Source: a virus (taxonomy: Duplodnaviria > Heunggongvirae > Uroviricota > Caudoviricetes). From it: a DNA stretch of 24,643 bases. Position numbers and translations under genes: made by a program. Location of the stretch: positions 1 to 24,643 of IMG/VR virus record IMGVR_UViG_2778261316_000001; one strand, written 5' to 3'. The notes under the pieces were generated by a model. The model was not told where the DNA came from. It saw only the letters and a program-made list of their open reading frames with translations, and searched no databases. Every line of letters starts with the position of its first letter. The first letter of the stretch is position 1. This document shows positions 1,717-24,535 of this stretch, in pieces.

Positions 1717-2706
1717 ATGACCATGATTAAAGATAGCTATCAGTTCGGCATTGAGCCAGTACGTATCACCGACACCGACAACATTCAGGTAAACGAAGGT
1801 CTTCCGACTAACGCCGACCCTCAGGTCTATGCCTTCCAGTTAGCTAAGCTGGTGAAGACCATGCTCAATTCTGTACTTAAAGACGCTCAGGATAACATTC
1901 CGTTCCCTGTAGAAGTCCTGCCAGCTCGCAACAGCTTACCGACGCCAATCATTGCTCACACTCTGGCTGACCGCTCTGTGGTCGTTCCTGTCCGTGGTGG
2001 TAAACGACCTGAAGTCGTGACCGCTCCGTCTGGTACTGAAATCACCGTTGAGCCGATTGAGCAAGCTATCCTCGTGTCCCACCAGACCAAGCTATGGGAC
2101 GCTAAGTCATCCACCGGATTCACTCAGGGCACACTTCAGCAGGACGCTATGAACATCTGTGAGAATGTGGTCCGTACCATCAACGCTCGCATGGTCGACG
2201 TTCTGGAGTCCTCCAAACTGTTGAAGACCGTAGAGCTTCCTGTCCTGACTGGTAGCCTGACCGCTAAGGCAGACGATATCATGGACGCTCTGTATGACAA
2301 CACCGAGCCATCTTTCGGTTCTGAGGTTTCTGACTATGGCATTATCGCCCATGAGTCACACATCAAGGCTCTCTCTCGTCTGGCTGCTAAGCAGGGCTTC
2401 TCTGGTGAAGACGCTATCGTGGATATGCTGGGTACCGACATCGCGTATTACAACGGTGAGGACAAAGGTGTGTTCATGTTGGCTAAACGCTTCACGGCCC
2501 TGAGCTTCGGCTGCTTCCGTCACGACGGTGAGAATATTACGGTCGTCCTTTCACGTGATGGCGACTCTCAGTCCCACGACTTGGAAATCCTCGGTAAAGT
2601 GTTCGTTGTCGCTGAAGCTGCTACGACCGTCAAGATGGGCACTGGCTCAGCTACTGCCGTCCTGCCTGTAGTCAAACGCCTGAAGTTCACCAAGACCGAA
2701 GCGTAA
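1717..2706 (+). CDS. Hypothetical phage structural protein, possible major capsid protein, about 329 aa
   Basis: TAGGAG 10 nt upstream of ATG at 1717 (track start 1708 is TTG); T/V/A-rich, low K/R composition and size typical of capsid proteins; follows the coiled-coil ORF. Product is a guess. Confidence 0.4.
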   Translation: MTMIKDSYQFGIEPVRITDTDNIQVNEGLPTNADPQVYAFQLAKLVKTMLNSVLKDAQDNIPFPVEVLPARNSLPTPIIAHTLADRSVVVPVRGGKRPEVVTAPSGTEITVEPIEQAILVSHQTKLWDAKSSTGFTQGTLQQDAMNICENVVRTINARMVDVLESSKLLKTVELPVLTGSLTAKADDIMDALYDNTEPSFGSEVSDYGIIAHESHIKALSRLAAKQGFSGEDAIVDMLGTDIAYYNGEDKGVFMLAKRFTALSFGCFRHDGENITVVLSRDGDSQSHDLEILGKVFVVAEAATTVKMGTGSATAVLPVVKRLKFTKTEA

Positions 2707-10194: not shown

Positions 10195-11475
10195 TTAATT
10201 TTTCATTGCTTCGTTATGGGGCATGGTTGGGGCAAACTCGCTTAACTGTGTATTTAACAAAGCTACCTGTGCATTATTGTTTTCAGACATCCATTTTCCG
10301 TATACCTGAAATACCATTTGCGCATCTGCATGGCCCATCTGGTTTGCTATAAATGCCGGGTTAGCACCAGCTGTCAGCGACCAGCAGGCATAAGTATGTC
10401 TCGACTGATATGATTTTCGATGGCGGAGTCCGGCACGTTTTATCGCTGCGTCCCACATCTGCCTTATTGAGTCAACGGTAAAATGGTCACCATAATTTTT
10501 TACTCTCGCTGACACTTCAGGTTGAAAAACAAAGGTGCATTTTTGTTTTTCTGTTCTGCCATACTCTCTGAGGTGAACATCAATGATATGCTCTTTGCTC
10601 AGTCTCGTTAATGTCATCTGACTCCGGAGAGCGTCGATTGCTGGCTTAATAAGATGAATGACCCGATTGGTTCCCGCCTGTGTTTTTGGTACCGTGAAAC
10701 GGTCTTTTGCTAAATTTCTCCTGATCATCATTGTTCCATTTTTCAGATCTATGTCCTCCCATCCAAGTGCACACAGCTCACCAGGGCGAACGCCAGTATA
10801 AACAGAAACACACCATAAATTTTTGGCTTGCTGATTTCTGCACGCATCGATAAGACGGATGAATTCCTCCCGCGAAAGAGGATCCGGAATGGTTCTTGAT
10901 TCCTTTAATGGCGAGATCCCCTTAAACGGGTTATCTGCCAAGTAACCGTTATCAACACCAAACTGGAACACGGCGTTAAGATTTGTCATGTAATTATTTA
11001 CAGTTACAGCCGATCTCCCTGGTTGTGTAACAATATAGTTACTTTTGGGGATCTGGTATCCAGTCAGTAGCTCTTTACGAACCTCCAGTAATTTTTCTTT
11101 ATTAATCGATGAGGCAAGATTTTTTTCACCGATTATGCTCAGGATATTTTTGATGACGGCACGGTATGTGTTGAGTGATGTTTTTGCGACTTCAGTTTCT
11201 TTCAGTGCCAGAAATTTTTCAGCCAGTTCTTTTATGGTTAAATCTTGTCGGGCCTCACCAAATTTTTCCAGATTGCGTGAGGAGGGAAACTGTTTTGCAT
11301 AGTCGAAAACACCAGTTTTTATTGCGTAACAAACAGAGGCGCGTAGTTCACCTGCAACGCGCCTGTTTTTTGCTGTGTCAGGAACCCCCAGATTTTCCCT
11401 GACTCTTACGCCTTTATAAACAAACCAGATACGTAATTTCCCTCCATGGTTTTCCACGCCTGTCGGATATTTCAT
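10195..11475 (-). CDS. int: Phage tyrosine integrase (lambda/Rac IntR-like), about 426 aa
   Basis: N-terminus MKYPTGVENHGGKLRIWFVYKGVRVRE resembles IntR-type integrases; C-terminal catalytic region with HxxR and terminal Tyr context (SYQSRHTYACW...HADAQMVFQVYGKW); adjacent to the ydfJ junction. Confidence 0.85.
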   Translation of the reverse strand: MKYPTGVENHGGKLRIWFVYKGVRVRENLGVPDTAKNRRVAGELRASVCYAIKTGVFDYAKQFPSSRNLEKFGEARQDLTIKELAEKFLALKETEVAKTSLNTYRAVIKNILSIIGEKNLASSINKEKLLEVRKELLTGYQIPKSNYIVTQPGRSAVTVNNYMTNLNAVFQFGVDNGYLADNPFKGISPLKESRTIPDPLSREEFIRLIDACRNQQAKNLWCVSVYTGVRPGELCALGWEDIDLKNGTMMIRRNLAKDRFTVPKTQAGTNRVIHLIKPAIDALRSQMTLTRLSKEHIIDVHLREYGRTEKQKCTFVFQPEVSARVKNYGDHFTVDSIRQMWDAAIKRAGLRHRKSYQSRHTYACWSLTAGANPAFIANQMGHADAQMVFQVYGKWMSENNNAQVALLNTQLSEFAPTMPHNEAMKN

Positions 11476-11509
11476 TTCAACTTCTCTCATTAGTTAGTGT
11501 GGCTTTTAG

Positions 11510-11761
11510 TCAAGTAAGATGACGTCTTGGTCTCGCTGATGCCTGGCGCTCAATCCAGCGATCAATTTCTTCCAGGTTGTAAAAGCATGGGCTGTTATCC
11601 CATGGCATACCGTCATGAGCGACATGCTTATATTCCCTTCCTTCCATAAACGATTTTTCCCGGGCCTTTTTTAACGTACCTTTTTTTATTCCTTTCAGCG
11701 CAATTAACTGCTCTTCGGATACCCATTTGCCGGGAGAGACAATCATGATTACTTCGCTCAT
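11510..11761 (-). CDS. xis: Putative excisionase (YdaQ/Xis-like), 83 aa
   Basis: Small basic protein immediately upstream of int on the same strand; resembles recalled Rac YdaQ. Confidence 0.6.
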   Translation of the reverse strand: MSEVIMIVSPGKWVSEEQLIALKGIKKGTLKKAREKSFMEGREYKHVAHDGMPWDNSPCFYNLEEIDRWIERQASARPRRHLT

Positions 11762-11833: not shown

Positions 11834-14305
11834 TTAAGAATCAGCCTGACTCGGGATCAGTTTTTGCCAGATAACTGAAACGTATTTTGCCTGGTAACGG
11901 GCGTCATCAAGTGCATTATGGCGCTCACCTTCGAATGGAATAGCCGTTCTGGCATCGAAGTCTATGGCTTTCCCCAGCTCAACGATTGTGCGTACATCGC
12001 GATCGTTGTAGTAACGCCACGGGCAGGGGATCCCCTGCCGTTCGTATGAACGGCGCAAAATCGTGTTGTCGAAGTTGGCTCCATTTCCCCAAACCTGAAC
12101 AAAAAATTCACCGGAGTTTTCGTCGATAAATTCCCGCAATTGTAACAGTGCATCATCTAACGGGATTTCATCGGTCATAATGGCAGATTGCGCTTCGCGT
12201 GATTGCTTAAGCCACCATTTAATGGTGTCCCGATCAATGACTCCGCCAGCAGTTTCCAGATCGATAGTCTTACTAAATTCCGGTCCCATATCTCCGGTTT
12301 GCGGATCGAAAAATATTGCACCTATTGAGATGATCGGGGCATCAGGATTTTTTCCCATGGTTTCAAGGTCGATCATTAGATGGTCACACGTCCTGCTGGT
12401 GGATGTGATTTCGTGATGACCGTTCACCTTAATTGAGTGATCTGCCGTCTCGCCAGTTTCATTATCGCTATTGTGATGCTGATTGCCGCCAGTGTTCTCC
12501 TTGTGTGGATGTTCAGCGCCTTCCATTTCCTCCAGATCATCTTCCTGAACTTCAACCTGATACTCTTCATCGAATGTTTCCTGGTATGTTGCGTCGCCCA
12601 TCACCGCGCCACAATCAGGGCAGTTGCCGCCGCCGGTCTGACCGCAGGCGGTGCAGACTTTTTCCACTTCCAGTTGCGCCACTGGTTCAGGCTGTTTCGT
12701 TTCTGGCTCGTTTTGTAACGCATTTGTGCTGTTTTGTTCCGCTTTTTGGTAGTTCCGTTCCGATTCATGCTGGTTCTGGTTCACAGAATCGCGGGTCTGG
12801 ATCCCCTTAACCCATTTCGGATCATTCGGGTCACTAATCCCTTCAACAAATTCACCACGTGATGCAGCAAGCAACTTATCGGCGTCAGGCTGGCTGATAT
12901 TGGCTGCCTGCATAATTTTGTTTACTTCGTCAGCGGTAACTTTTATCGGCTCTGGTTGTTCTGAATCTTCAGCGGTATCTACATTTTGCGGTAAGCCCGT
13001 GTATGTGCCATTTTTTCGGGCAAAATATTCTTCTTTTGTGATTTCAGTGGCGCCAGCAGCCAGTGCCTTATCCAGACCAGAAAGTTTGTTTGCGCGACCG
13101 TATTTTTCTCCGTCCTTATCTGCGAAGAGGAAATAGAACGGCCCCTCACGCTCTACAGATGGTTCAGCTTCCGGCGCGGTTTCATTTTTTGGGATATCAG
13201 ATACCTCAGTTTCCACTGCATCAGTTTGTGTTTCTGATGACTGGAGAACATCAACAGTGCCCAGGTCTGTTTCTTCATTCTCAAACACGCCCTTTGTCGT
13301 CAGGTATTCGCAGATATATTTGTTCAGTGCTATGGGATCTTTGTGAATGTCGATCGGACGCTCACGGACAAGGCCAAAAATAGTCTGGCGGTCGTAGCGA
13401 AGGGCATCAGGCTGTTTGCGCATTGATGCCGAGATACGCTTCCAGTCTTCGCGGTCGTTGTCGATAACTTCTTTTTTTGCCCAGCGATGGATGCTGCCGT
13501 CAATGTTTCCGGCATCCACATCACCAGGCCAGAGAGCGTAGGCCAGTTCGTCATCCAGTGTTTTCCATGTCTGCTTGTATTCGCGATGAATGGCAGCAAT
13601 GACCGGGCTGATTTTTCCTGTTGAATTTTCAGTGTACTGTTGATTGGTTCTGGCGCGGGCGAGATCAACAACAGACGTGTATTTTCCGGTTTCCTTGCGT
13701 TCACCTTCGCGACGTTTTTTCCAGATGCGCATCTCTGCCTGAATTTCGGGCCATTTAGCACCAGGAATACATTTATGCTTAACCCACCCAATGGCGTGCA
13801 ACTTAAGCTCCGGATACATGGCGTTAACTTCTGGCATTTTCATCAACGCTTCAACGATATGTCCGTCGAATGTTGCCATGTCTTCCTGCAACAATTCCTG
13901 TGCGCTAATAACCATATCAACGGTGATGTTTTCACATGTGTCGAACTTAACCATGACAGCGTTCTGTACTTCAGGGGCCAGCTTGTCAAAAGTGACGTTC
14001 ATCGGATCGGATTCAGTCTCAACCGGGACAAAAGAAGCAGACTCCTCATCCCAGCGGTTTTCCTGCATATATTCAGCATCCCATGAATCGAGGGCAGGGC
14101 GGGGTATGCCAGGTTTATCCTCGCAGACAATAAATTTATAAGCGCAGTCCTGAGCAGCCGGATAATGTTCCAGGAACTGCCAGTGAAATTTTGCTCGAGC
14201 ACGGCGTTCGTCGCCAGCTTCAATGGCTGTGGCTACAGCCACAGCGCCTTCTTCCCTTGTTGCCAGTTCGTCAGGAATAGCGGCGCAAATAAAGACTTTA
14301 CTCAT
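11834..14305 (-). CDS. RecE-like exonuclease VIII family protein with C-terminal DnaQ-like (DEDDh) 3'-5' exonuclease domain and internal Cys4 zinc ribbon, 823 aa
   Basis: Middle segment DADKLLAASRGEFVEGISDPNDPKWVKGIQTRD matches a recalled RecE segment; C-terminus has MIDLETMG, WGNGANFDN and HNALDDARY (Exo I/II/III motifs); CTACGQTGGGNCPDCG zinc ribbon. Confidence 0.7.
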   Translation of the reverse strand: MSKVFICAAIPDELATREEGAVAVATAIEAGDERRARAKFHWQFLEHYPAAQDCAYKFIVCEDKPGIPRPALDSWDAEYMQENRWDEESASFVPVETESDPMNVTFDKLAPEVQNAVMVKFDTCENITVDMVISAQELLQEDMATFDGHIVEALMKMPEVNAMYPELKLHAIGWVKHKCIPGAKWPEIQAEMRIWKKRREGERKETGKYTSVVDLARARTNQQYTENSTGKISPVIAAIHREYKQTWKTLDDELAYALWPGDVDAGNIDGSIHRWAKKEVIDNDREDWKRISASMRKQPDALRYDRQTIFGLVRERPIDIHKDPIALNKYICEYLTTKGVFENEETDLGTVDVLQSSETQTDAVETEVSDIPKNETAPEAEPSVEREGPFYFLFADKDGEKYGRANKLSGLDKALAAGATEITKEEYFARKNGTYTGLPQNVDTAEDSEQPEPIKVTADEVNKIMQAANISQPDADKLLAASRGEFVEGISDPNDPKWVKGIQTRDSVNQNQHESERNYQKAEQNSTNALQNEPETKQPEPVAQLEVEKVCTACGQTGGGNCPDCGAVMGDATYQETFDEEYQVEVQEDDLEEMEGAEHPHKENTGGNQHHNSDNETGETADHSIKVNGHHEITSTSRTCDHLMIDLETMGKNPDAPIISIGAIFFDPQTGDMGPEFSKTIDLETAGGVIDRDTIKWWLKQSREAQSAIMTDEIPLDDALLQLREFIDENSGEFFVQVWGNGANFDNTILRRSYERQGIPCPWRYYNDRDVRTIVELGKAIDFDARTAIPFEGERHNALDDARYQAKYVSVIWQKLIPSQADS

Positions 14306-14398: not shown

Positions 14399-14590
14399 TT
14401 AAAGACCTGCCGGGATTTCGATATTATCCTGGTGAATAACTTTATCGACCGGGTAACAGTTACCGGGAATTTTCTGTTCGGTTGCTGCAGTCATACACTC
14501 CTGCATTGTCCTGTGCACACTGACTGCAATATCAACTGGCTCTCCGGAAACAAGAAAAACTGTCAGAACAAGCACAAATGCTGAATTCAT
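14399..14590 (-). CDS. ydfD: YdfD-like small prophage protein, 63 aa
   Basis: MNSAFVLVLTVFLVSGEPVDIAVSV... one hydrophobic helix; start overlaps the dicB stop (ATGA); position after dicB as in Qin. Confidence 0.7.
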   Translation of the reverse strand: MNSAFVLVLTVFLVSGEPVDIAVSVHRTMQECMTAATEQKIPGNCYPVDKVIHQDNIEIPAGL

Positions 14591-14775
14591 TGTGCACATC
14601 CTTTTGGCATCAGACGTAAACGAGCCAGCATTGAAACAATGCATATTTTATTTAATAGCTCCCGTTCTTGTTTTCTCTTGTTAATGGCATCTTCAGTAAA
14701 TACTGGGTTACTGATAGTGACACCAATTTCAAAACAACCTTCAGACGTATTAACGTTTGGTAATAACGTTTTCAT
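14587..14775 (-). CDS. dicB: Cell-division inhibitor DicB, 62 aa
   Basis: MKTLLPNVNTSEGCFEIGVTISNPVFTEDAINKRKQERELLNKICIVSMLARLRLMPKGCAQ matches recalled DicB; lies just downstream of dicF on the same strand. Confidence 0.85.
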   Translation of the reverse strand: MKTLLPNVNTSEGCFEIGVTISNPVFTEDAINKRKQERELLNKICIVSMLARLRLMPKGCAQ

Positions 14776-14949
14776 TATCGCGTCCTCAACAATGAATTTT
14801 GTGATGCAGTGCCTGGTGCCTCCAGGTGACGTTAACCAGTTAACAATTAACGCCGGATACAGAGAATCCACCCATAACACTGTTTTTGGTTTTAACTGTT
14901 CCGCGTGCGCTCAGCCGCATTCACCACATCACAAAATTCACTTTAAAAA

Positions 14950-15002
14950 GGGCGGCAGAGCAGTCACGGAGTAAAACTGATACCGCCAAACGTCACCAGA
15001 AA
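14950..15002 (-). ncRNA. dicF: DicF small RNA (53 nt) with intrinsic terminator
   Basis: Reverse complement reads TTTCTGGTGACGTTTGGCGGTATCAGTTTTACTCCGTGACTGCTCTGCCGCCC followed by TTTTT, identical to the recalled K-12 DicF sequence. Confidence 0.9.
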
Positions 15003-15342
15003 ATTGATAACAGAGGGCGTTGCAGCGGGGTTGTCACTTAAGCGTATGGTCAACCTGACAACCCGGTGTCCTCAACGGGGAAGGAATAACCCCGCCATAC
15101 TTACCGCCGCGCCATTTCGCGGGTTGCCACAACCGGAAGCGCACGGTCGACGAAAATTTAACGACAGGCTATCTATGAACCAGCTACCTCGCCGTGCGCT
15201 TTCGCGTTATGGTCTGACTTTTCAGGGAAATATCCTTTCAGTAAACTGTCAGTGCCGGATGCTCACCCGTGTCCGGCGCACGCACTCCACCTCACCCGTG
15301 GAGAACTCCTTAATTACTAACCTTAGCTTTGTTGATTAGCTA

Positions 15343-15561
15343 CTAACGCGGGTATGTAATCATTCTGGCAATGCTTAATGCCGCTGCTTTTTCCAGATTG
15401 GTGATATCCTGCTCCAGAGCGGACAGATTTTCAGCCTGCTTAGCCCTGGTTTCATTGGCCCATTTCAAATCCTGCGCTGCATTAATTTTCTGGCGCATCC
15501 ACTCATAAAGTTCATCATCGGTATAGTCTGGCGCGATGATGACGGGTTCTCGTTTCTGCAT
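15343..15561 (-). CDS. ydfC: YdfC-like prophage protein, 72 aa
   Basis: Size and position (between ydfB and dicF) match the Qin dicB operon; sequence MQKREPVIIAPDYTDDELYEWMRQ... resembles recalled YdfC. Confidence 0.7.
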   Translation of the reverse strand: MQKREPVIIAPDYTDDELYEWMRQKINAAQDLKWANETRAKQAENLSALEQDITNLEKAAALSIARMITYPR

Positions 15562-15590
15562 ACTGATTCCTCGCGGTGCTGTTTCGCTTA

Positions 15591-15719
15591 TCAGCCGTTA
15601 GATTTTGCCGAACTGGAAAGCGCCTGTTTAAATTCGTTGAAGCTGAGAGCTTCTTCGCCGTCGGCAAGACCTTCCAAGTATTCTTCGTAAGCCTTTTCCA
15701 TGATTGTGTCGAAATCCAT
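15591..15719 (-). CDS. ydfB: YdfB-like prophage protein, 42 aa (MDFDTIMEKAYEEYLEGLADGEEALSFNEFKQALSSSAKSNG)
   Basis: Found by manual translation (below track cutoff); start is 2 nt after the ydfA stop; size matches K-12 YdfB. Confidence 0.6.
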   Translation of the reverse strand: MDFDTIMEKAYEEYLEGLADGEEALSFNEFKQALSSSAKSNG

Positions 15720-15720
15720 A

Positions 15721-15876
15721 TCACTCACCTGGGTTTCTTTCCAGCCAGCGACGGGCACCATTTTCGGTTTTAAACGTTTTGCTTTTGGTATACGTCATCG
15801 CGGTGAACGTACCGTCCTGGTTGGGGAACACGCCACATACCAGAGATTCGCTGTTGCCAAGATCGATAGTATCCAT
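15721..15876 (-). CDS. ydfA: YdfA-like prophage protein (DUF1391), 51 aa
   Basis: MDTIDLGNSESLVCGVFPNQDGTFTAMTYTKSKTFKTENGARRWLERNPGE; first gene downstream of the dicB-operon promoter. Confidence 0.7.
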   Translation of the reverse strand: MDTIDLGNSESLVCGVFPNQDGTFTAMTYTKSKTFKTENGARRWLERNPGE

Positions 15877-15990
15877 GCTGACCTCATTTCCCCTTAACGC
15901 CGGGGTAGCGGAACTGTTTGCTGAGAACACCGTGCGGTGTCTTGATGGAAAATAATTTAGAATAACCTAACATGAGAGGCAAGTGTTTTT

Positions 15991-16008
15991 TGTTAGATTG
16001 ATCTAACA
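15991..16008. promoter_or_regulatory. Palindrome TGTTAGA-TTGA-TCTAACA in the dicB-operon promoter region (candidate DicA operator)
   Basis: Perfect 7-bp inverted repeat between the dicA 3' end and the ydfA start; the same half-sites recur at 16502-16519. Confidence 0.5.
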
Positions 16009-16044: not shown

Positions 16045-16452
16045 TTATTTTATTGATTTATTTTTACGCGCTTTAAGCATTTCTTCGAAGAGTTTGTTGA
16101 AGTTTTCTACTCTTGCGCGCATTTCAGACAGCAAGGCTTCCTGCTCGGAAGATGGAAGAGCATCGAATAATTCGATCAATTCTTTGTGGTTGGGAGTTAG
16201 CTCTGTTTCCACATGAAGTTCTTGTGCAGGCACTGGTGCCTTGTCTTCGTCACCAAACATTAGCCATGTAGGTGAGCACTTCAGAGCATCCGCTAAAGCA
16301 AACAATCGTTTTCCGACTGGCTGGGTTTCGTCTCTTTCCCATTGTGAAATTGTGACGTGAGCAACTCCAGCGAGGCGCGCGGCTTCTCGTTGTGTTAAGC
16401 GTAATTCTTTTCGTCGCGCCAGAACTCGCTGGCCCAGGGTTCTTGTATCCAT
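16045..16452 (-). CDS. dicA: DicA, HTH-XRE repressor (cI-like), 135 aa
   Basis: N-terminal HTH (LRLTQREAARLAGVAHVTISQWERDE); C-terminal part (FALADALKCSPTWLMFGDEDK...EMRARVENFNKLFEEMLKARK) matches recalled DicA; divergent from dicC. Confidence 0.85.
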   Translation of the reverse strand: MDTRTLGQRVLARRKELRLTQREAARLAGVAHVTISQWERDETQPVGKRLFALADALKCSPTWLMFGDEDKAPVPAQELHVETELTPNHKELIELFDALPSSEQEALLSEMRARVENFNKLFEEMLKARKNKSIK

Positions 16453-16501
16453 AGTTAGGTAATTCTAATTTTTCTTGACTTAGGTATCCCGCGCACAATA
16501 A

Positions 16502-16519
16502 TGTTAGAAAAGTCTAACA
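16502..16519. promoter_or_regulatory. Palindrome TGTTAGA-AAAG-TCTAACA in the dicA-dicC intergenic region (candidate operator)
   Basis: Perfect inverted repeat just upstream of the dicC RBS (GAGGGGGG) and about 50 bp from the dicA start; a TTGACT -35-like hexamer lies upstream. Confidence 0.5.
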
Positions 16520-16533
16520 AGAGGGGGGCTTTG

Positions 16534-16761
16534 ATGCTTAAAGTTGACGCAATTACTTTTTTTGGCAGCAAAACAAAGCTTGCCAATGCCGCAGGAGTGA
16601 GGCTGGCAAGTGTTGCTGCTTGGGGGATACTGGTTCCTGAAGGTCGCGCGATGCGTCTACAGGAGGCATCTGGCGGGGAGCTTCAGTATGATCCCAAAGT
16701 TTATGATGAATATCGTAAGACGAAGCGGGCGGGGCGGTTGAACAATGAAAATCACTCCTGA
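16534..16761 (+). CDS. dicC: DicC, Cro-like regulator, 75 aa
   Basis: MLKVDAITFFGSKTKLANAAGVRLASVAAW...; start at internal Met after the RBS (the track start at 16501 would include the operator). Confidence 0.8.
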   Translation: MLKVDAITFFGSKTKLANAAGVRLASVAAWGILVPEGRAMRLQEASGGELQYDPKVYDEYRKTKRAGRLNNENHS

Positions 16762-17266
16762 ACAGGCTCGTGAGGCTCTGGATGCCTGGATATGTCGACC
16801 AGGAATGACACAGGAGCAGGCGACGATATTAATCACTGAAGCATTCTGGGCTTTGAAAGAGCGCCCGAACATCGATGTTCAGCGTGTCACAGATGAAGGT
16901 GGCGCGGTTGATCAGCGAGCGCTTGGTGTTAATCGAGTGAAGATATTCGAACGCTGGAAGGCTATCGACACCAGGGATAAGCGTGAAAAGTTCACGGCGC
17001 TAGTGCCTGCGATTATGGAGGCTATCCGGATTAGTGATTTCAGGTTGTATCGTGAAATTACTGACGGAAAAAGCATCACGTGCATGATCGCCGGGTTAAA
17101 CAAAGAATATGGCGATGTGGTGGAGTCCGGACTGCTTTTTGCTGATCCTGCCGTAGTGGATCGTGAAACTGACGAACTTATAGAAAAAGCAATTGCTTTC
17201 AAGCTTGCGTATCGACAGCAATACCAACAAAAAGCTGGATGGAATTATGAGCCTTCTTTTTGCTGA
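16745..17266 (+). CDS. Hypothetical prophage protein, 173 aa, in the cII/YdaT position
   Basis: ORF overlapping the dicC end and the replication gene start; no motif recognised. Confidence 0.5.
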   Translation: MKITPEQAREALDAWICRPGMTQEQATILITEAFWALKERPNIDVQRVTDEGGAVDQRALGVNRVKIFERWKAIDTRDKREKFTALVPAIMEAIRISDFRLYREITDGKSITCMIAGLNKEYGDVVESGLLFADPAVVDRETDELIEKAIAFKLAYRQQYQQKAGWNYEPSFC

Positions 17267-18190
17267 ACGCCCACTGGTTATAAACACGCAGCTGGCAATG
17301 AAAATTGGCTTAAACGAAGCCATTGTTTTGCAACAACTGCACTACTGGTTGAGAGATACCAACTCCGGCATGGAATGTGATGGTGTTCGCTGGATTTATA
17401 ACACAACGGAACAATGGCTGGAACAGTTCCCATTCTGGTCAGAGTCAACGTTAAAGCGCGCGTTTGCAAGTCTGAAAACGCTGGGGCTTTTGCGTTGTGA
17501 AAAGCTCAATAAATCAAAGCGCGATATGACCAATTTCTACTTTTAGATGGTGGCAAATTGAGCGAATCCATCGGTTCAAAATGCGCCGCTCCATCAGGTC
17601 AAAATGACACGATGGAAGAGGTCAAAATGAAACGCTCCATTGGTTCAAAACGACCCAATGTCATCGGGTCAAAATGGCCTGATGATCTTACAGAGAATAC
17701 AACAGAGATTACTACAGAGAATAAAAACACTTTTCGTCCGGAAGCTTCGCAACCGGACCCGCAGACGACTGAACAGGATTCTTTAACCCGGAACTCCGAC
17801 GCGGTTGTGTTTAGTGCGAAAAAACGCCAGTGGGGTAGCAGGGAGGATTTGGCGTGTGCGCAGTGGATCTGGGGGCGGATCGTGGGTCTCTACGAACAGG
17901 CAGCCAGTGATGATGGCGAGATCATGCGACCAAAAGAGCCTAACTGGACTGCCTGGGCCAATGACGTGCGCACAATGCGGATGCTGGATGGCAGAAGCCA
18001 CAGACAAATTTGCGAAATGTTTGGTCGGGTTCAGCGAGATCCATTCTGGGTAAAAAACATCATGAGCCCGTCAAAGCTCCGCGAAAAATGGGACGAACTG
18101 GTCATCCGCCTGGGACGTTCACCTGTACAGCGTTGTGTTAATCATATTTCTGAACCGGATACAGAAATTCCGCCTGGTTTCAGAGGATAA
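17247..18190 (+). pseudogene. Phage replication initiator (O-like) split into two frames at a T-run, with origin iterons inside
   Basis: N-terminal ~100 aa (MSLLFAERPLVINTQLAMKIGLNEAIVLQQLHYWL...) in frame 0 ends at 17546; continuation in another frame from about 17513/17558 to 18190; frames meet at ctacTTTTagatgg. Confidence 0.55.
17562..17680. repeat. Five iterons (consensus TCCATYGGTTCAAAATG) at 23-24 bp spacing, followed by an A+T-rich stretch: candidate prophage replication origin
   Basis: CAAAATG/CAAAACG cores at 17577, 17600, 17623, 17646, 17670; downstream acagagaatacaacagagattactacagagaataaaaac. Confidence 0.65.
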
Positions 18191-18230
18191 GTGTTGATTT
18201 CAGGTCATGAGGTAATTTTAAGGGGGACTT

Positions 18231-18653
18231 GTGGCAAAAGTTTTTACACAAGAAGAGCGGGAAAAAATTAAATGGCAGGTGGTGGAACTCGTGCGCCAGA
18301 GCGGCCGTGAGACGTTACGGCAACTGGAAGCTAAAACAGGTGCGACTAGATATCTGATGAGCGTTCTTGCCAGAGAGCTGGTAGCCAGTGGCGATGTATA
18401 CAACTCCGGCTACGGGTTATTCCCCTCTGAACAGGCGCGTAAGGACTGGCAAAACGCCCGCAAAAAACTCTCGAGGGCAAAGGTGAAGAAACCTGCTGTG
18501 GTTGATCCGGACCTTATCTGGTCATCACCTGACGGAGAAATACGTCGCTACGACAGTCGCCTAAACATAATCTGTCGCGAGTGCCGGAAGAGCGAAGTTA
18601 TGCAGCGCATACTGGCTTTCTATCAGGGTAATTTTCAGGACGTGGCGCAGTGA
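18231..18653 (+). CDS. Hypothetical prophage protein, 140 aa (GTG start)
   Basis: ORF after the replication gene, overlapping the methyltransferase start (GTGA); basic, with a CxxC pair (CRECRK). Confidence 0.4.
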   Translation: MAKVFTQEEREKIKWQVVELVRQSGRETLRQLEAKTGATRYLMSVLARELVASGDVYNSGYGLFPSEQARKDWQNARKKLSRAKVKKPAVVDPDLIWSSPDGEIRRYDSRLNIICRECRKSEVMQRILAFYQGNFQDVAQ

Positions 18654-19139
18654 GTGCACCGGCAACCATTCTTGATATGTGCTGTGGCAGCCGCATGTTC
18701 TGGTTCGATAAGTCTGACAAACGGGCGATATTCAGCGATATCAGAAAAGAAGGATACACATTACGCAATGGGAGACGCTTGATTATCAGCCCTGACATTA
18801 TCGCAGATTTTCGTGCATTATCATTTGCAGACGCATCTTTTTCGATGGTTGTATTAGACCCTCCGCATCTTGAGCGTGTTGGTGATAACGCCTGGATGGG
18901 AAAGAAATATGGACGGCTGAATAAAGATGCCTGGCGTGATGATTTGCGACAGAGATTTAAAGAAGCTTTTCGGGTGTTGAGGCCGCACGGCGTTCTGATT
19001 TTTTAATGGAATGAAACGCAAATACCGGTAAGCCAGATTCTGGCACTGACAGATAGAAAGCCTGTTATCTGTCAACGAACAGGGAAAAAACGATAAAACC
19101 CACTGGATTATTTTTATGAAAGAGGCATCCAGTGAGTAG
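18650..19139 (+). pseudogene. Phage DNA methyltransferase (DPPH motif) disrupted by an in-frame TAA and a frameshift in an A-run
   Basis: ILDMCCGSR (motif I-like) and VVLDPPH (motif IV); in-frame TAA at 19004-19006 inside ...GVLIF*WNETQIPVSQ...; reading shifts frame in AAAAAA at 19085-19090 to continue ...NDKTHWIIFMKEASSE. Confidence 0.6.
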
Positions 19140-19616
19140 ATTCGTAAGGTTACAGATACGTATATCTGAATAATTAAATTCAGTTCTGTAAATAAAACTT
19201 AATCCTTAACCGGATGGATTTCTGCACCCTCAGAACATCAGGAGGCCGCCCGAAAGGGCGGTAGTGAAATGCGAAAGTTCAAAATTATTATTGAAACGGA
19301 AATAGCTGGTGGAGATTTTGAGGATGTATTCGAAGTGGACGATGACGCAACACCTGATGAAATTCATGACGGAGCATAAGAAATTTTCTTTAACTACTGC
19401 AATTACTCATACCACGAAATAAAAGACGATGAGGAAGAACAAAGTGGCTGATTTTTGTTCAGCTAAATATAACATCAGTTTTGAAGAGCGGGATGAACTA
19501 TTAATGGACTATGGTGAATTACGCGGTGGAAGTGCTGCTGATGTCGAATCCTAGCGTGATGACTATGAAGCGGGAAAAACTCCGGTCGAAGCATATTGTG
19601 ATGAGTGGGGCGATGA

Positions 19617-19871
19617 ATGAGCGAGATTAATTATCAGGAAGGGCATGAAACGGCGGGGCAAGCAAAACCAGTGGCATGGCGATATCGCTACGTGAAAAAA
19701 GCGTTACGGACTTTCAGGGGAAGTAGTGGTCTGGTGACTGGAAATATGTACCGAAAAAAGAGGATTGTAACGACAGGCCGAACTATCAAATTCAGGCCTT
19801 ATTCACTGCCTCACCAGTCCCGGTTACATCAGAAGAACTGGTTAAAGCTGTGCACTTTTATGAACAACTAA
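19617..19871 (+). CDS. Hypothetical protein, 84 aa, possibly frameshifted
   Basis: Track ORF; an alternative frame from about 19700 gives a more protein-like continuation (WKYVPKKEDCNDRPNYQIQALFTASPVPVTSEELVKAVHFYEQLKREN) without a start codon. Confidence 0.3.
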   Translation: MSEINYQEGHETAGQAKPVAWRYRYVKKALRTFRGSSGLVTGNMYRKKRIVTTGRTIKFRPYSLPHQSRLHQKNWLKLCTFMNN

Positions 19872-20157
19872 AACGCGAAAATCCACCAACATCCGGCAAC
19901 TAGATTAATGGATTAACTATGTCGGTTAAACGACCAGCCAACTGAAAAAGCGGAAACCTGATTACAGGTTGCCAGATAAGGCAATGAGCTACCTGGCGCG
20001 GAACGGGCTGATAAGTATGGGGAATGTTTTACGATGAACCTTTAGACTAAAGAGTTTGTAACGCTATGTAAGTGATTTTTTCTGGTTTAGATATTTATAT
20101 GTCCGGCCAAATTGAGGTGTGTTTAAATGTAATTGCACATTGATTGTAGGAGGAATA

Positions 20158-20337
20158 ATGAAAAACGCATTGCAGTTTTTGTTTGTTGCGTTCTGGTTGT
20201 TCGCATCATGTATGCCCATCATCTTCACAGCAAGGTATATGGAAAAAGTTGATGTTTTGATATTAATATTTGGATATATAAATGCCCTTTTTTTAGGGGT
20301 GTTCATGGCGGTCATGTGCATTGAATACTGGCGGTAA
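20158..20337 (+). CDS. Small two-helix membrane protein, 59 aa
   Basis: Strong RBS (TAGGAGGAATAATG), A+T-rich upstream region; MKNALQFLFVAFWLFASCMPIIFTARYMEKVDVLILIFGYINALFLGVFMAVMCIEYWR. Confidence 0.4.
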   Translation: MKNALQFLFVAFWLFASCMPIIFTARYMEKVDVLILIFGYINALFLGVFMAVMCIEYWR

Positions 20338-20643
20338 ATACAGCGAACTCCATTGGTTTAGTTGGATATTTACTGTGCTGGACAAAAACGGTTTGCGGGG
20401 AAATCTTAGTTAAGTAGAATGACTGCGGGTGCTTGAGGCTATCTGCCTCGGGCATGGACACCAACGGCAGATAGAGAAAAGCCCCAGTTAACATTACGCG
20501 TCCTGCAAGACGCTTAACATTAATCTGAGGCCAATTTCATGCTAGACACATGTAGGTTAGCCTCTTACGTGCCGAAAGGCACGGAGAAGCAGGCTATTGT
20601 TAACACCAAGCTGTAATGTCCCCTTTGAACCATTCTAAAATGT

Positions 20644-20670
20644 CCCCAGACAATTCTCTGGGGGATTTTT
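20644..20670 (+). terminator. Intrinsic terminator-like hairpin (CCCCAG...CTGGGG + TTTTT) immediately upstream of the transposase start
   Basis: 6-bp GC-rich stem, 8-nt loop, then GATTTTT; ends 1 nt before the ATG at 20672. Confidence 0.4.
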
Positions 20671-20671
20671 C

Positions 20672-22012
20672 ATGATCAAAGAGACTGTTACGATGAGTCA
20701 TAAGGAACTCCACCGACTTCAGATTATTCAGGAGTCAATTAATCGACATATTACTCAGGAACAAGCTGCGGCACGCATTGGCATTTCTATTCGGCAGGTT
20801 AAACGTCTGGTGCAACGGTATAGAAATGAAGGGCCTTCTGGTCTGGTTTCCCACCGACGTGGAAAGCGTCCTAATAATTCCTTTTCTACTGAATTCAGAG
20901 CAACAGTAATTTCACTCCTCAAAGGCCGTTACGCTGATTTTGGACCTACGTTTGCGTGCGAAAAATTGCGCGAGATACACGGTTTATCTTTATCCGTTGA
21001 AACTCTCAGAAAGTGGATGATAGAAGAGGGGTTATGGCGTGAACGCCGTCGTAAAATTGCCCGTATATATCAACGCCGCATGCGACGACCATCTTACGGT
21101 GAACTGATCCAGATTGATGGCTCACCTCATGACTGGTTTGAAAATCGAGGCCCCAGATGTACACTGATCGTTTTCATTGATGATGCCACCAGTGCGTTGA
21201 TGGCGTTGCGTTTTGTGCCTGCTGAAACAACCCGGGCTTACATGGAAACCCTCCGGGGTTACCTTAATGATCATGGCGTACCGCTCGCTCTCTACTCTGA
21301 TAGACACAGTATATTCAGGGTAAATAACCCAGAGCGGGAAGGTGAGCTGACCCAGTTCACTCGTGCGATAAAGACACTGGGCATCGAGCCAATCCATGCC
21401 AACAGCCCGCAGGCAAAAGGGCGGGTAGAGCGCGCCAATCAGACACTACAGGACAGGCTGGTCAAAGAAATGCGGCTTCAGAATATCAGTGATATTGAAA
21501 CAGCAAATGCATGGTTGCCGACCTTTATTGAAGCCTATAACAACCGGTTCGCTACGTCGCCTCGTACTACTGATAATGCTCATCTTGATGTGCACCATTC
21601 TGAAGAGGAACTGGGTTATATCTTCAGCCTACAGGCGAAGCGCGTTCTGTCTAAAAATCTCACTTTCCAGTACAAAAGCAGTGCGTTTCAGGTACGCAGT
21701 GAGAGCCGGGGATATCGACTTAGGCATTCGGTTGTTACTGTATGCGAGAACTTTGACGGTGAAATTAACGTTCTGTATGACGGGAAAGCGCTGGGCTGGG
21801 AAAAGTATGTTGATGGCCCGGAGCCTATACCACTGGATGATGAAAAGAGTGTCCATGAACGAGTGGATAATGCCCGTATTGATTTACGCTCAAAATACTA
21901 TGTTAAACCTAAAGCTGACCATCCCTGGCTTACGCGCCGAACGCAAAGTCATCAGCAAGTTAAGCCCCCGAAGTTACCTAAAAAGAAGCCTGATCCCGAT
22001 AAAAAAGATTGA
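20672..22012 (+). CDS. DDE transposase (HTH N-terminus plus rve integrase-core domain), 446 aa; IS481/ISNCY-like
   Basis: N-terminal HTH (ITQEQAAARIGISIRQVKRLVQRY), catalytic core with D...D...E pattern (IQIDGSPHDWF..., LYSDRHSIF, ...RVERANQTLQ), basic C-tail. Family assignment from memory. Confidence 0.8.
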   Translation: MIKETVTMSHKELHRLQIIQESINRHITQEQAAARIGISIRQVKRLVQRYRNEGPSGLVSHRRGKRPNNSFSTEFRATVISLLKGRYADFGPTFACEKLREIHGLSLSVETLRKWMIEEGLWRERRRKIARIYQRRMRRPSYGELIQIDGSPHDWFENRGPRCTLIVFIDDATSALMALRFVPAETTRAYMETLRGYLNDHGVPLALYSDRHSIFRVNNPEREGELTQFTRAIKTLGIEPIHANSPQAKGRVERANQTLQDRLVKEMRLQNISDIETANAWLPTFIEAYNNRFATSPRTTDNAHLDVHHSEEELGYIFSLQAKRVLSKNLTFQYKSSAFQVRSESRGYRLRHSVVTVCENFDGEINVLYDGKALGWEKYVDGPEPIPLDDEKSVHERVDNARIDLRSKYYVKPKADHPWLTRRTQSHQQVKPPKLPKKKPDPDKKD

Positions 22013-23911: not shown

Positions 23912-24067
23912 ATGAAGCAGCAAAAGGCGATGTTAATCGCCCTGATCGTCATCTGTTTAACCGTCATAGTGACGGCACTGGTAACGAGGAAAGACCTCTG
24001 CGAGGTACGAATCCGAACCGGCCAGACGGAGGTCGCTGTCTTCACAGCTTACGAACCTGAGGAGTAA
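23912..24067 (+). CDS. hokD: HokD (RelF) Hok-family membrane toxin, 51 aa
   Basis: MKQQKAMLIALIVICLTVIVTALVTRKDLCEVRIRTGQTEVAVFTAYEPEE, found by manual translation; typical Hok architecture. Confidence 0.85.
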   Translation: MKQQKAMLIALIVICLTVIVTALVTRKDLCEVRIRTGQTEVAVFTAYEPEE

Positions 24068-24283: not shown

Positions 24284-24535
24284 ATGATGAACATCGAAGA
24301 ACTGCGTAAAATTTTTTGTGAAGATGGCCTCTATGCTGTGTGCGTTGAAAATGGAAATATTGCTAGTCATTACCGCATTGTGTGTTTGCAAAAAAATGGG
24401 GCTGCGTTAATTAATTATGTGGATGCCCGAGTGACGGACGGATTTATCTTGCGCGACGGTGAGTTTGTCACTTCATTACAGGCATTGAAAGAGATCGGAA
24501 TAAAAGCTGGCTTTTCTGCTTTTTCAGAAGAATAA
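24284..24535 (+). CDS. rem: Rem-like prophage protein, 83 aa
   Basis: Size and position after hokD match K-12 Qin rem; sequence MMNIEELRKIFCEDGLYAVCVENGN... resembles recalled Rem. Confidence 0.65.
   Translation: MMNIEELRKIFCEDGLYAVCVENGNIASHYRIVCLQKNGAALINYVDARVTDGFILRDGEFVTSLQALKEIGIKAGFSAFSEE

Follow-up and report, generated by a model that had tools for sequence, protein, structure and literature searches.

A Qin-type dicBF operon beside rspB and the origin of its K-12-like DicF

Background

Is a small RNA that is identical in two prophages a sign that selection has acted on that RNA? The question is raised by a stretch of viral DNA of 24,643 nucleotides, IMG/VR record IMGVR_UViG_2778261316_000001, which we call the window in its entirety. 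It carries, on its minus strand, the genes of a dicB operon together with the small RNA DicF, and the original prediction, made from the sequence, saw in this DicF an RNA held constant while its neighbours drifted. Our conclusion is different: very probably, this is a Qin-type dicBF operon at the Qin site beside rspB, and the match between its DicF and that of K-12 reflects a shared haplotype, not selection specific to the sRNA.

The operon and its gene map

The order ydfA-ydfB-ydfC-dicF-dicB-ydfD is found on the minus strand at 14399-15876, and in the list of open reading frames every ORF of the series is intact. The order is that of K-12, on one strand, with family-level protein matches (Pfam DicB/DUF1391/DUF1482), and ydfD overlaps dicB by 4 nt at the dicB stop codon. 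All six elements of the complete minus-strand operon that had been announced are thus present, and the range given for it, 14399-15880, was right to within 4 nt. Of 5426 complete E. coli genomes, 4759 have a match over at least part of a 2.3-kb query running from dicC to ydfD, so that the resemblance is one of homology and not of chance. What the window carries is the already known dicBF operon of a lambdoid prophage of the Qin type; it has been studied in depth, and about 80% of complete E. coli genomes have a copy. Table 1 collects the features.

Table 1. Features of the operon and its surroundings, in window coordinates
Feature	Position	Strand	Evidence
Full-length 823-aa 3'-5' exonuclease gene	11834-14305	-	ORF; Pfam PF16473 226.5 bits
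ydfD (DUF1482; annotated as lysis protein)	14399-14590	-	Pfam PF07358 91.1 bits; 191/192 nt identical to K-12
dicB, 62-aa cell-division inhibitor	14587-14775	-	Pfam PF05358 136.8 bits; 189/189 nt identical to K-12
dicF-dicB spacer, the dicB 5' leader	14776-14949	-	174/174 identical to K-12
T-run TTTTTAA, completing the DicF Rho-independent terminator	14943-14949	-	Sequence and fold; identical in K-12
dicF, 53-nt small RNA	14950-15002	-	Rfam RF00039 76.7 bits; 53/53 identical to K-12 b1574
Inferred 190-nt RNase III-generated DicF precursor	14950-15139	-	Projected from K-12 experiments (bioRxiv 10.1101/2023.04.14.536235)
Conserved structured leader of the DicF precursor	15010-15130	-	Covariance model R1, 154 bits
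ydfC, 72 aa	15343-15561	-	ORF; 216/219 nt identical to K-12; one amino-acid change, A38T
ydfB, 42 aa	15591-15719	-	123/129 nt identical to K-12; 3 amino-acid changes
ydfA (DUF1391), 51 aa	15721-15876	-	Pfam PF07151 95.6 bits; 147/156 nt identical to K-12
Putative dicB-operon promoter, TTGCCT-17-TAAATT at 15982-15954	15954-16008	-	Positional homology to the K-12 dicA-ydfA spacer
dicA-type repressor, different immunity allele	16045-16452	-	Pfam HTH_3; 57% aa identity to K-12 DicA
Promoter-like site for dicC, TTGACT-16-AATAAT	16475-16520	+	Third operator palindrome 16502-16520
dicC, P22 Cro-like	16534-16761	+	Pfam PF14549 45.9 bits; PGAP annotation of near-identical genome

Directly upstream of the operon, and on the same strand, lies dicA, from which the Cro-like dicC diverges. 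Three palindromes of the form TGTTAG-N-CTAACA, predicted operators whose half-sites are the same in K-12, are distributed between the dicA/dicC spacer and the region upstream of ydfA. Two of them (15990-16008 and 15957-15973) overlap the putative dicB-operon promoter, and a promoter scan raised no flag at that promoter; a role for promoter and operators is suggested by the repeats and by their position relative to the K-12 ones. The window also contains rem.

If the operon behaves as experiments on K-12 describe (PMC5069750; bioRxiv 10.1101/2023.04.14.536235), leftward transcription would start just downstream of dicA, at a promoter overlapped by operators for the resident DicA-type repressor. 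By analogy, this DicA, an allele only 57% identical to the K-12 one, would repress the promoter and Rem would relieve the repression. The polycistronic RNA, in the order ydfA-ydfB-ydfC-leader-dicF, would be cut by RNase III into a precursor of about 190 nt and then by RNase E into the 53-nt DicF, whose 3' end would come from its own intrinsic terminator. With Hfq, the 3' part of DicF may pair with ftsZ mRNA and its 5' end with xylR and pykA mRNAs, which would block division and change metabolism. Transcripts that read through the terminator would yield DicB, then YdfD. In K-12, dicB expression depends on this read-through (bioRxiv 10.1101/2023.04.14.536235), and DicB is an indirect inhibitor of FtsZ polymerisation (PMC5069750; bioRxiv 10.1101/2023.04.14.536235).

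Site and state of the prophage

The window is 99.99% identical to NZ_CM194533.1, a genome in which the prophage lies between rspB and Qin-like lysis genes. The int ORF, at 10195-11490, adjoins ORFs that correspond to rspB and rspA as PGAP annotates them in that genome. Similarly, intQ extends to the end of the annotated Qin element of K-12, where its immediate neighbour is rspB. The prophage is inserted at the chromosomal site of K-12 Qin, beside rspB.

The description of this prophage as decaying is accurate for one region and misleading for others. The near-identical genome has annotated IS elements and pseudogenes in its replication region, but int, xis and the 823-aa exonuclease gene are all full-length ORFs in the window, and the prophage is less decayed than K-12 Qin. 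The 5' 767 nt of the exonuclease gene align to K-12 ydfE as far as an IS2 insertion; in K-12 the gene survives as the truncated pseudogene ydfE. The K-12 stretch examined has no annotated excisionase.

One could go further and take the operon for the silent relic of a dead prophage, conserved only through recent insertion, with a DicF and a DicB that no longer function. The IS elements and pseudogenes just mentioned are in keeping with this, as are the tight repression of the K-12 operon in laboratory conditions (bioRxiv 10.1101/2023.04.14.536235) and the 3.5-kb deletion that removed dicF and the immunity region from 14 of 86 loci anchored on DicB. However, the five small ORFs are all intact, the encoded DicB is identical to the active K-12 protein, and repressor, Cro-like gene, rem and the predicted promoter-operator architecture are all in place. 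Moreover, 4419 of the 5426 complete E. coli genomes carry the segment that precedes DicF, in a median of 2 copies and at most 8, and K-12 itself shows stationary-phase DicF and inducible filamentation (bioRxiv 10.1101/2023.04.14.536235). We regard a silent relic as most improbable.

Identity of DicF with K-12: haplotype or selection

A scan with the Rfam model of DicF, RF00039, finds the RNA at 15001-14950 with 76.7 bits, well above the gathering score of 48 (E 1.4e-15); the match spans model positions 1-52 of 52, and the stem pairs are all canonical. Both the minimum-free-energy and the centroid folds leave nucleotides 1-15 open and form a terminator hairpin from nucleotides 16-52, followed by UUUUU, with a fold energy of -15.9 kcal/mol (z = -2.0). 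The identity of DicF and its terminator to those of K-12, as stated in the original prediction, is exact: 53/53 against MG1655 (NC_000913 1649382-1649434), then 174/174 in the downstream segment that includes the T-tail. The stretch that carries the inferred 190-nt precursor is likewise identical to K-12, and diversity in the population falls at about 15147-15152, near the inferred start of the precursor. The behaviour of DicF is established for K-12 alone; the identity of both sRNA and precursor suggests that it would be the same here.

From this identity it had been argued that strong purifying selection held the sRNA while its neighbours drifted, and alignment with K-12, dicF against its neighbours, was proposed as the way to see it. 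The alignment yields no local island of identity. The run without any difference is 677 nt long, from 15193 to 14517, and contains dicF, the whole of dicB and the spacer that separates them. Between the ydfB/ydfC spacer and the start of the exonuclease gene, 8 differences occur in 1232 nt, a rate at which 53 nt would hold 0.34 differences, with probability 0.71 of holding none; at the rate over 14399-15880, this probability is 0.44. DicF is identical to K-12 because the surrounding 677 nt are all identical, and, given the probability of 0.71, the comparison with K-12 carries no signal of purifying selection specific to the sRNA.

As for the flanking genes that were said to have diverged, dicA has (75/132 aa, with DNA that can be aligned only downstream of window position 16163), but ydfC has not. 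Going upstream, divergence increases in steps: about 6.8% across ydfA/ydfB, then a dicA N-terminus that cannot be aligned at all. Such steps point to module exchange, not to a difference in rates, and dicA/dicC, alone in being truly diverged, looks like a swapped immunity module, as is usual in lambdoid phages. Mosaic breakpoints recur over the 86 DicB-anchored loci. The whole dicF-dicB-ydfD tract is the K-12 haplotype, acquired through common descent or in a recent recombination tract, and the identity of DicF is consequently no evidence for selection acting specifically on the sRNA. Two cautions are worth stating: a short RNA that equals its reference tells us nothing when the entire tract carries the reference haplotype, and lambdoid mosaicism can mimic diverged neighbours.

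Population samples offer a second view of the problem, provided that the choice of loci does not dictate the answer. The best 80 loci anchored on the DicB of the window nearly all encode a DicB that is 100% identical, are too related for a test of conservation, and show a diversity that simply drops towards the anchor. Loci anchored on the exact 5' segment of DicF display a valley of diversity centred on dicF, which we discarded as confounded by the choice of loci; these were used only for the extent of DicB variation. We rely, for a sample unbiased with respect to dicF, on 77 sequences (76 loci and the window) chosen through divergent DicB; DicF variants were searched by blastn. There, diversity is 0.077 in the 5' 20 nt of dicF and 0.070 in its hairpin, against 0.04-0.08 in the flanks, and 58 of the 77 sequences carry alleles other than that of K-12; these include G12A and G12T, a form whose hairpin is short and others in which the 5' end has been replaced.

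Selection on the sRNA has arguments of its own. The targets of DicF have been validated, and regulation is lost when DicF is mutated (PMC5069750). The exact 19-nt 5' segment is shared by loci whose downstream DicB ranges from 100% to 58% amino-acid identity; however, that divergence consists of a replaced C-terminal half, not of gradual drift. Among K-12-like loci, the nucleotide diversity of dicF is 0.006, against 0.014-0.019 in the flanks, a value 2-3 times lower that leaves room for some added constraint on the sRNA; but the difference is not significant, and the comparison of segregating sites in dicF and in flanking non-coding DNA shows no significant excess of conservation (Fisher p = 0.42). 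With the 677-nt run, the conserved ydfC and the variable alleles of the unbiased sample added to the balance, strong purifying selection is a highly unlikely source of the identity, and the shared haplotype remains our preferred explanation.

The two-hairpin leader

The most conserved element of the region is not dicF: it is the leader just upstream of it (15130-15010), which is more widely conserved than DicF. It folds into hairpin 1 (15094-15076) and hairpin 2 (15064-15028), the latter with a conserved 19-nt loop. Within the DicF precursor, what is conserved among distant phages is this structured leader, and not the sRNA. Homologues occur in Qin-type prophages, in the ban-operon leader of P1 and P7, in Stx2c phages, phage cdtI, metagenomic phages and others; no Rfam family matches the leader. 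Over 100 distinct homologues, compensatory changes are seen in 9 of 14 pairs, a count that none of 500 shuffles reached and that supports both hairpins, although conservation and pair counts are somewhat inflated since the homologues were gathered with partly fixed patterns and the alignment was fitted to the model. An RNAalifold structure for the leader was set aside in favour of these two hairpins, being without covariation. Hairpin 1 often differs by one-nucleotide indels, and this makes a coding function less likely.

Behind the leader, nearly every homologue examined has a terminator-type hairpin and a T-run, usually within about 85 nt; metagenomic L387 is the one homologue seen without them nearby. 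The hairpin itself has at least 8 different sequences, the 5' "seed" comes in several variants, and the genes downstream vary: dicB, kil, tRNAs and ban, or an unrelated ORF. We also considered an outer closing stem, or anti-terminator pairing, between the leader segment GGCGCGGCGG and the 3' strand of the terminator; it was rejected, as P1-class homologues keep the leader with an unrelated terminator.

These observations invite the hypothesis that the constrained unit is a cis-acting module of leader plus terminator and not the trans-acting DicF. The leader, of about 120 nt, would be an undescribed and widespread phage RNA element that acts on processing or on read-through, as a put-type antiterminator or an attenuator would, and DicF would be its variable, fast-evolving 3' product; the genes read into may be division-inhibitor or replication genes. 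The hypothesis is consistent with a leader more widespread than DicF, with covariation in both hairpins, with a terminator that persists while its sequence changes, with the diversity of downstream genes and with the requirement of read-through for dicB expression. On the other hand, a role as precursor for RNase III and RNase E may suffice for conservation, the leader has no sequence similarity to HK022, the counts are inflated as said above, and in Qin the predicted promoter is about 800 nt upstream of the leader, not beside it. A search of the literature on antitermination at dicF/dicB returned nothing relevant. We hold the hypothesis to be tentative, and on the whole rather doubtful, both for the module as the constrained unit and for the leader as its cis-acting element. 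If true, it would explain how the toxic dicB is expressed behind a terminator, and why phage genes that are unrelated to one another are preceded by the same module.

Comparison with known systems

The put RNAs of phage HK022 (PMC9378689) resemble the leader in architecture alone: about 70-120 nt long, they form two stem-loops and precede terminators in an early phage transcript. The leader likewise has two supported stem-loops upstream of terminators, but in Qin its distance from the promoter differs, and blastn and blastn-short against the whole HK022 genome, which carries putL and putR, gave only chance-level matches. Homology was accordingly rejected, and the architectural analogy is what remains.

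The model of STnc100/PasD, a prophage sRNA family (Rfam RF02076; bioRxiv 10.64898/2026.05.13.724894), aligns with the dicF-dicB spacer along its full 206 positions. The match, at 14952-14743, scores 34.4 bits, below the gathering score of 47, and extends into the dicB coding sequence; we do not count the spacer as a member of the family. Similar sub-threshold matches, of 34-40 bits, lie upstream of kil in phage pPE4 and in a P1-like plasmid.

In P1, the ban-operon leader contains an annotated "dicF-like region" (AF234172 68791-68892) just after Pban and the C1 operator. Its two-hairpin leader is 77.6% identical to that of the window, and that of P7 82%, with compensatory changes in the stems. 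As in Qin, the leader follows a repressor-controlled promoter and precedes an intrinsic terminator; however, the terminator hairpin and the 5' "seed" differ, the downstream genes are tRNAs and ban in place of dicB, and the Rfam DicF model has no match in P1 at E <= 1.

The leader-dicF-spacer-dicB module is also found, in varied prophage backgrounds, in EHEC O157:H7 and other E. coli (PMC5069750, Fig. 9). These copies include variant DicF alleles and DicB proteins down to 58-63% amino-acid identity, with a replaced C-terminal half, whereas the window has the K-12 alleles.

Qin of K-12 MG1655 (b1571-b1576) has the same gene order at the same chromosomal site, with 100% identity in dicF, the dicF-dicB spacer and dicB, and 337/340 in the leader. 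Its immunity module (dicA N-terminus, operators and dicC) is the other allele, with about 87% nucleotide identity in the dicC region, its ydfA and ydfB differ by about 5-6%, and it is without the block of replication genes found at about 17025-21827 in the window. Finally, its ydfE and intQ are pseudogenes interrupted by IS2, whereas the exonuclease, xis and int of the window are full-length ORFs.

Operon and host prophage

Between 15876 and 14399, the minus strand carries five intact small open reading frames and one RNA gene in the same order as in K-12. The original prediction of a complete dicB operon thus holds, with three proteins recognized by Pfam and DicF by Rfam. A scan against all Rfam families returns two matches in the 24.6-kb window, one of which is DicF: the match, at 15001-14950, spans the full model with all pairs canonical, and reaches 76.7 bits where the gathering score is 48 (E-value 1.4e-15). 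Folded alone, DicF has 15 open nucleotides, then the terminator hairpin, then a U-tail. The feature is a textbook operon, already known.

The window is 99.99% identical to E. coli NZ_CM194533.1 (2 mismatches over 22.8 kb), whose PGAP annotation, in window coordinates, gives the prophage layout of the table; the reading frames are also visible in the window itself. The prophage is Qin at the Qin site, and the operon lies between the exonuclease gene and the dicA-type repressor gene. After dicC, PGAP places ydaT, O and DUF977, two frameshifted genes and an ISEsa1 fragment, beyond which are ydfW, flxA, ydfV, relBE, hokD and rem. The frameshifts and the ISEsa1 fragment agree with the earlier description of a decaying prophage, but it is less eroded than K-12 Qin, in which intQ is a pseudogene and so is ydfE, the exonuclease gene reduced by IS2 to its 5' part. 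Segment 17025-21827 of the window is missing from K-12.

Features of the prophage, with nucleotides identical to K-12 MG1655 Qin
Feature	Position	Strand	Evidence	Identical to K-12
rspA and rspB	about 7.7-10.0 kb		PGAP	
int	10195-11475		PGAP	
xis	11510-11761		PGAP	
823-aa 3'-5' exonuclease	11834-14305		PGAP	
ydfD	14590-14399	-	intact ORF; Pfam YdfD/DUF1482	191/192
dicB	14775-14587	-	intact ORF; Pfam DicB, 136.8 bits	189/189
dicF-dicB spacer				174/174
dicF	15002-14950	-	RNA gene; Rfam RF00039	53/53
ydfC-dicF spacer				337/340
ydfC	15561-15343	-	intact ORF	216/219
ydfB	15719-15591	-	intact ORF	123/129
ydfA	15876-15721	-	intact ORF; Pfam YdfA/DUF1391	147/156
dicA-type repressor	16045-16452	-	PGAP	
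dicC	16534-16761		PGAP	

Two mobile-element observations can be added. NZ_CM194533.1 has a copy of ISSen4 (IS3 family) at window position 1871-1874, where the window has no insertion. A strong Rfam sok/hok-leader match (RF01794, 104 bits) at 20427-20598 (+), with no intact hok frame downstream, adjoins an IS transposase frame at 20672-22012. The IS seems to have cut short a second hok/sok locus here; hokD, at 23912-24067, is intact.

Since neither the small RNA nor any part of its precursor differs from K-12, we adopt the K-12 mechanism (PMC5069750; bioRxiv 10.1101/2023.04.14.536235). Transcription would begin at dicBp, repressed by DicA and relieved by the antirepressor Rem; RNase III would yield a 190-nt species and RNase E the 53-nt DicF, whose 3' end would come from intrinsic termination. 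Aided by Hfq, the 3' part of DicF would pair with ftsZ mRNA, and its 5' end with xylR and pykA mRNAs; all three targets are located outside the window. Expression of DicB and YdfD would require terminator read-through.

Three palindromes with half-sites TGTTAG..CTAACA are found, one in the dicA/dicC spacer (16502-16520) and two ahead of ydfA (15990-16008 and 15957-15973). K-12 has identical half-sites, with different inner bases; the shared half-sites suggest that the resident repressor allele may still control both promoters. The gene rem, for the K-12 antirepressor of DicA, is at 24284-24535 (+) within a block 99.3% identical to K-12, and dicA here is a different immunity allele (57% amino acid identity).

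Comparison with K-12

Each feature was aligned with K-12 MG1655 Qin. The predicted identity of DicF and its terminator to K-12 is exact and extends through the downstream spacer, but it was also taken as a sign of strong purifying selection on the small RNA, and here the alignment gives no dicF-specific signal: dicF is not set among diverged neighbours but enclosed in a run of 677 nucleotides, 15193-14517, without any difference. From the ydfB/ydfC spacer to the start of the exonuclease gene there are 8 differences in 1232 nucleotides; at this rate, 0.34 differences are expected in 53 nucleotides, and the probability of finding none is 0.71. It is 0.44 at the rate over the whole predicted range, 14399-15880.

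The flanking genes had been said to diverge. This is true of dicA, but not of ydfC, whose protein has one amino acid change; DicB and YdfD have none. Divergence climbs stepwise toward upstream: 15 differences fall within 15633-15851, in ydfA and ydfB, and DNA homology ends at 16163, within dicA, to return at about 87% in dicC. On the alignment, this is the pattern left by an exchange of modules at the lambdoid immunity region, not by unequal substitution rates, and the same mosaic breakpoints are found again in other loci. What is being compared is one haplotype in two copies, set in a mosaic background, and for this reason the argument for selection does not stand. The observation itself is upheld, its interpretation only in part.

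Conservation of DicF among loci

Among 86 loci anchored on the DicB of the window, dicF is missing from 14. In 12 of these, homology to the window does not extend beyond about 85 nt upstream of dicB (~14859); several have a deletion of about 3.5 kb joining ~14859 to ~18402, which also takes out ydfABC, dicA, dicC, ydaT and O, and leaves dicB without promoter or repressor (junction seen in compared loci L009, L012, L014, L019, L021, L023, L025, L037, L038, L070, L074 and L080). The dicF-bearing loci, E. albertii excluded, give 49 distinct haplotypes, in which positions 1-52 of dicF have 6 segregating sites, against 55 in the 319 positions of leader and spacer (Fisher p = 0.42). Nucleotide diversity is 0.006 in dicF versus 0.019 and 0.014 in the flanks, and low diversity is spread evenly from ~15147 to dicB. 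In E. albertii, the 5' 29 nt of DicF are retained with 2 mismatches, but the terminator hairpin is a different one.

In loci anchored on the exact 19-nt 5' segment of DicF, the downstream DicB spans 100% to 58% amino acid identity, an asymmetry that is partly an artefact of the choice of loci; the 174-nt dicF-dicB spacing is retained in 91/104. The aligned loci indicate that DicB differs by having its C-terminal half replaced, together with ydfD, and not by drift. In a common allele class (58-63% identity; 14671-14399 (-) versus L208-L287), homology is kept over the first 35 codons and all the DNA upstream, beyond which other sequence takes the place of the C-terminal half and most of ydfD; this puts a recombination junction inside dicB at ~14671.

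The fairest sample is anchored on divergent DicB, and so unbiased for dicF: 76 loci plus the window. Within these 77 sequences, the 5' 20 nt of DicF have a diversity of 0.077 and its hairpin one of 0.070, compared with 0.04-0.08 for the flanks. DicF does vary: only 19 sequences have the exact K-12 allele, the others having G12A, G12T, A39G, a short-hairpin form (TTTCTGGTGATTCGGCGGAAACGGATATCCGCCC) or a replaced 5' end. On these samples, DicF is not significantly more conserved than the non-coding DNA beside it. Some degree of constraint surely acts on DicF, given that its targets and pairing were validated in K-12 (PMC5069750); the locus in the window does not demonstrate it.

A spacer match and two host labels

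A full-length match to the Rfam STnc100 model at 14952-14743 (-), below threshold (34.4 bits against a gathering score of 47), runs across the dicF-dicB spacer into the start of dicB. Comparable matches precede kil in phage pPE4 (L290, 1758-1942) and a TerB-family gene in a P1-like plasmid (L288, 4343-4462).

Loci of the dicB/dicF type also occur under non-enterobacterial names: L006 (GTDB, MAG: Veillonella parvula), with 93-94% nucleotide identity to the window, and L290 (Actinobacillus phage vB_Apl-pPE4), annotated DicA/YdaT/Kil/exodeoxyribonuclease VIII. Both look like lambdoid prophage DNA of the E. coli type, which suggests bin contamination or a mis-assigned host.

A structured leader upstream of DicF

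What is somewhat new here is limited to one element, the structured leader at 15130-15010 (-) within the DicF precursor. Of 5426 complete E. coli genomes, 4419 carry the pre-DicF segment, which PGAP does not annotate; the median copy number is 2 and the maximum 8. Weaker matches, on P1-like plasmids, are confined to the part upstream of DicF. The same ~95 nt appear in phage records: in the ban leaders of P1 and P7, the P1 copy (L289, 1201-1295) directly following Pban and the C1 operator, in what the record labels a 'dicF-like region'; in Stx2c phages, cdtI, Ayreon and 2H10; and in pPE4 (L290, 1488-1613), ahead of a DicF-like hairpin and kil. Further homologues are L366, L376 and the metagenomic L387. 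The leader matches no Rfam family, in the window or in the phage and plasmid homologues scanned.

Homologues were gathered by pattern from viral and metagenome contigs, a covariance model was built, and 100 distinct sequences were aligned. The two hairpins, 15094-15076 and 15064-15028, are 94.5% paired, versus 42-55% with partners slid. Compensatory changes occur in 9 of 14 pairs (24 cells), a level reached by none of 500 shuffles; in one variant, four pairs of hairpin 2 changed together, GGATCACCA with TGGTGATCC. These figures are to be read knowing that the search patterns hold part of the sequence constant, that the alignment is fitted to the model, and that many of the changes go back to few lineages. 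One-nucleotide indels are common in hairpin 1, which argues that the segment does not encode protein.

In the homologues examined, the leader is followed by a hairpin and T-run, mostly within about 85 nt; L387 has none within 120 nt. This hairpin has at least 8 different sequences, and the short 5' 'seed' varies too: the conserved leader is thus the constant part, and DicF the variable part. Diversity drops at ~15150, coinciding with 15139, the position at which RNase III is projected to make the 5' end of its 190-nt product.

On a conservative view, the leader would be a processing scaffold, as already implied by K-12 work. A bolder view is that it may act in cis to control terminator read-through; that it forms a new class of cis-regulatory RNA seems unlikely. 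Set beside put of HK022, with which it has no sequence similarity, the leader is alike in architecture only.
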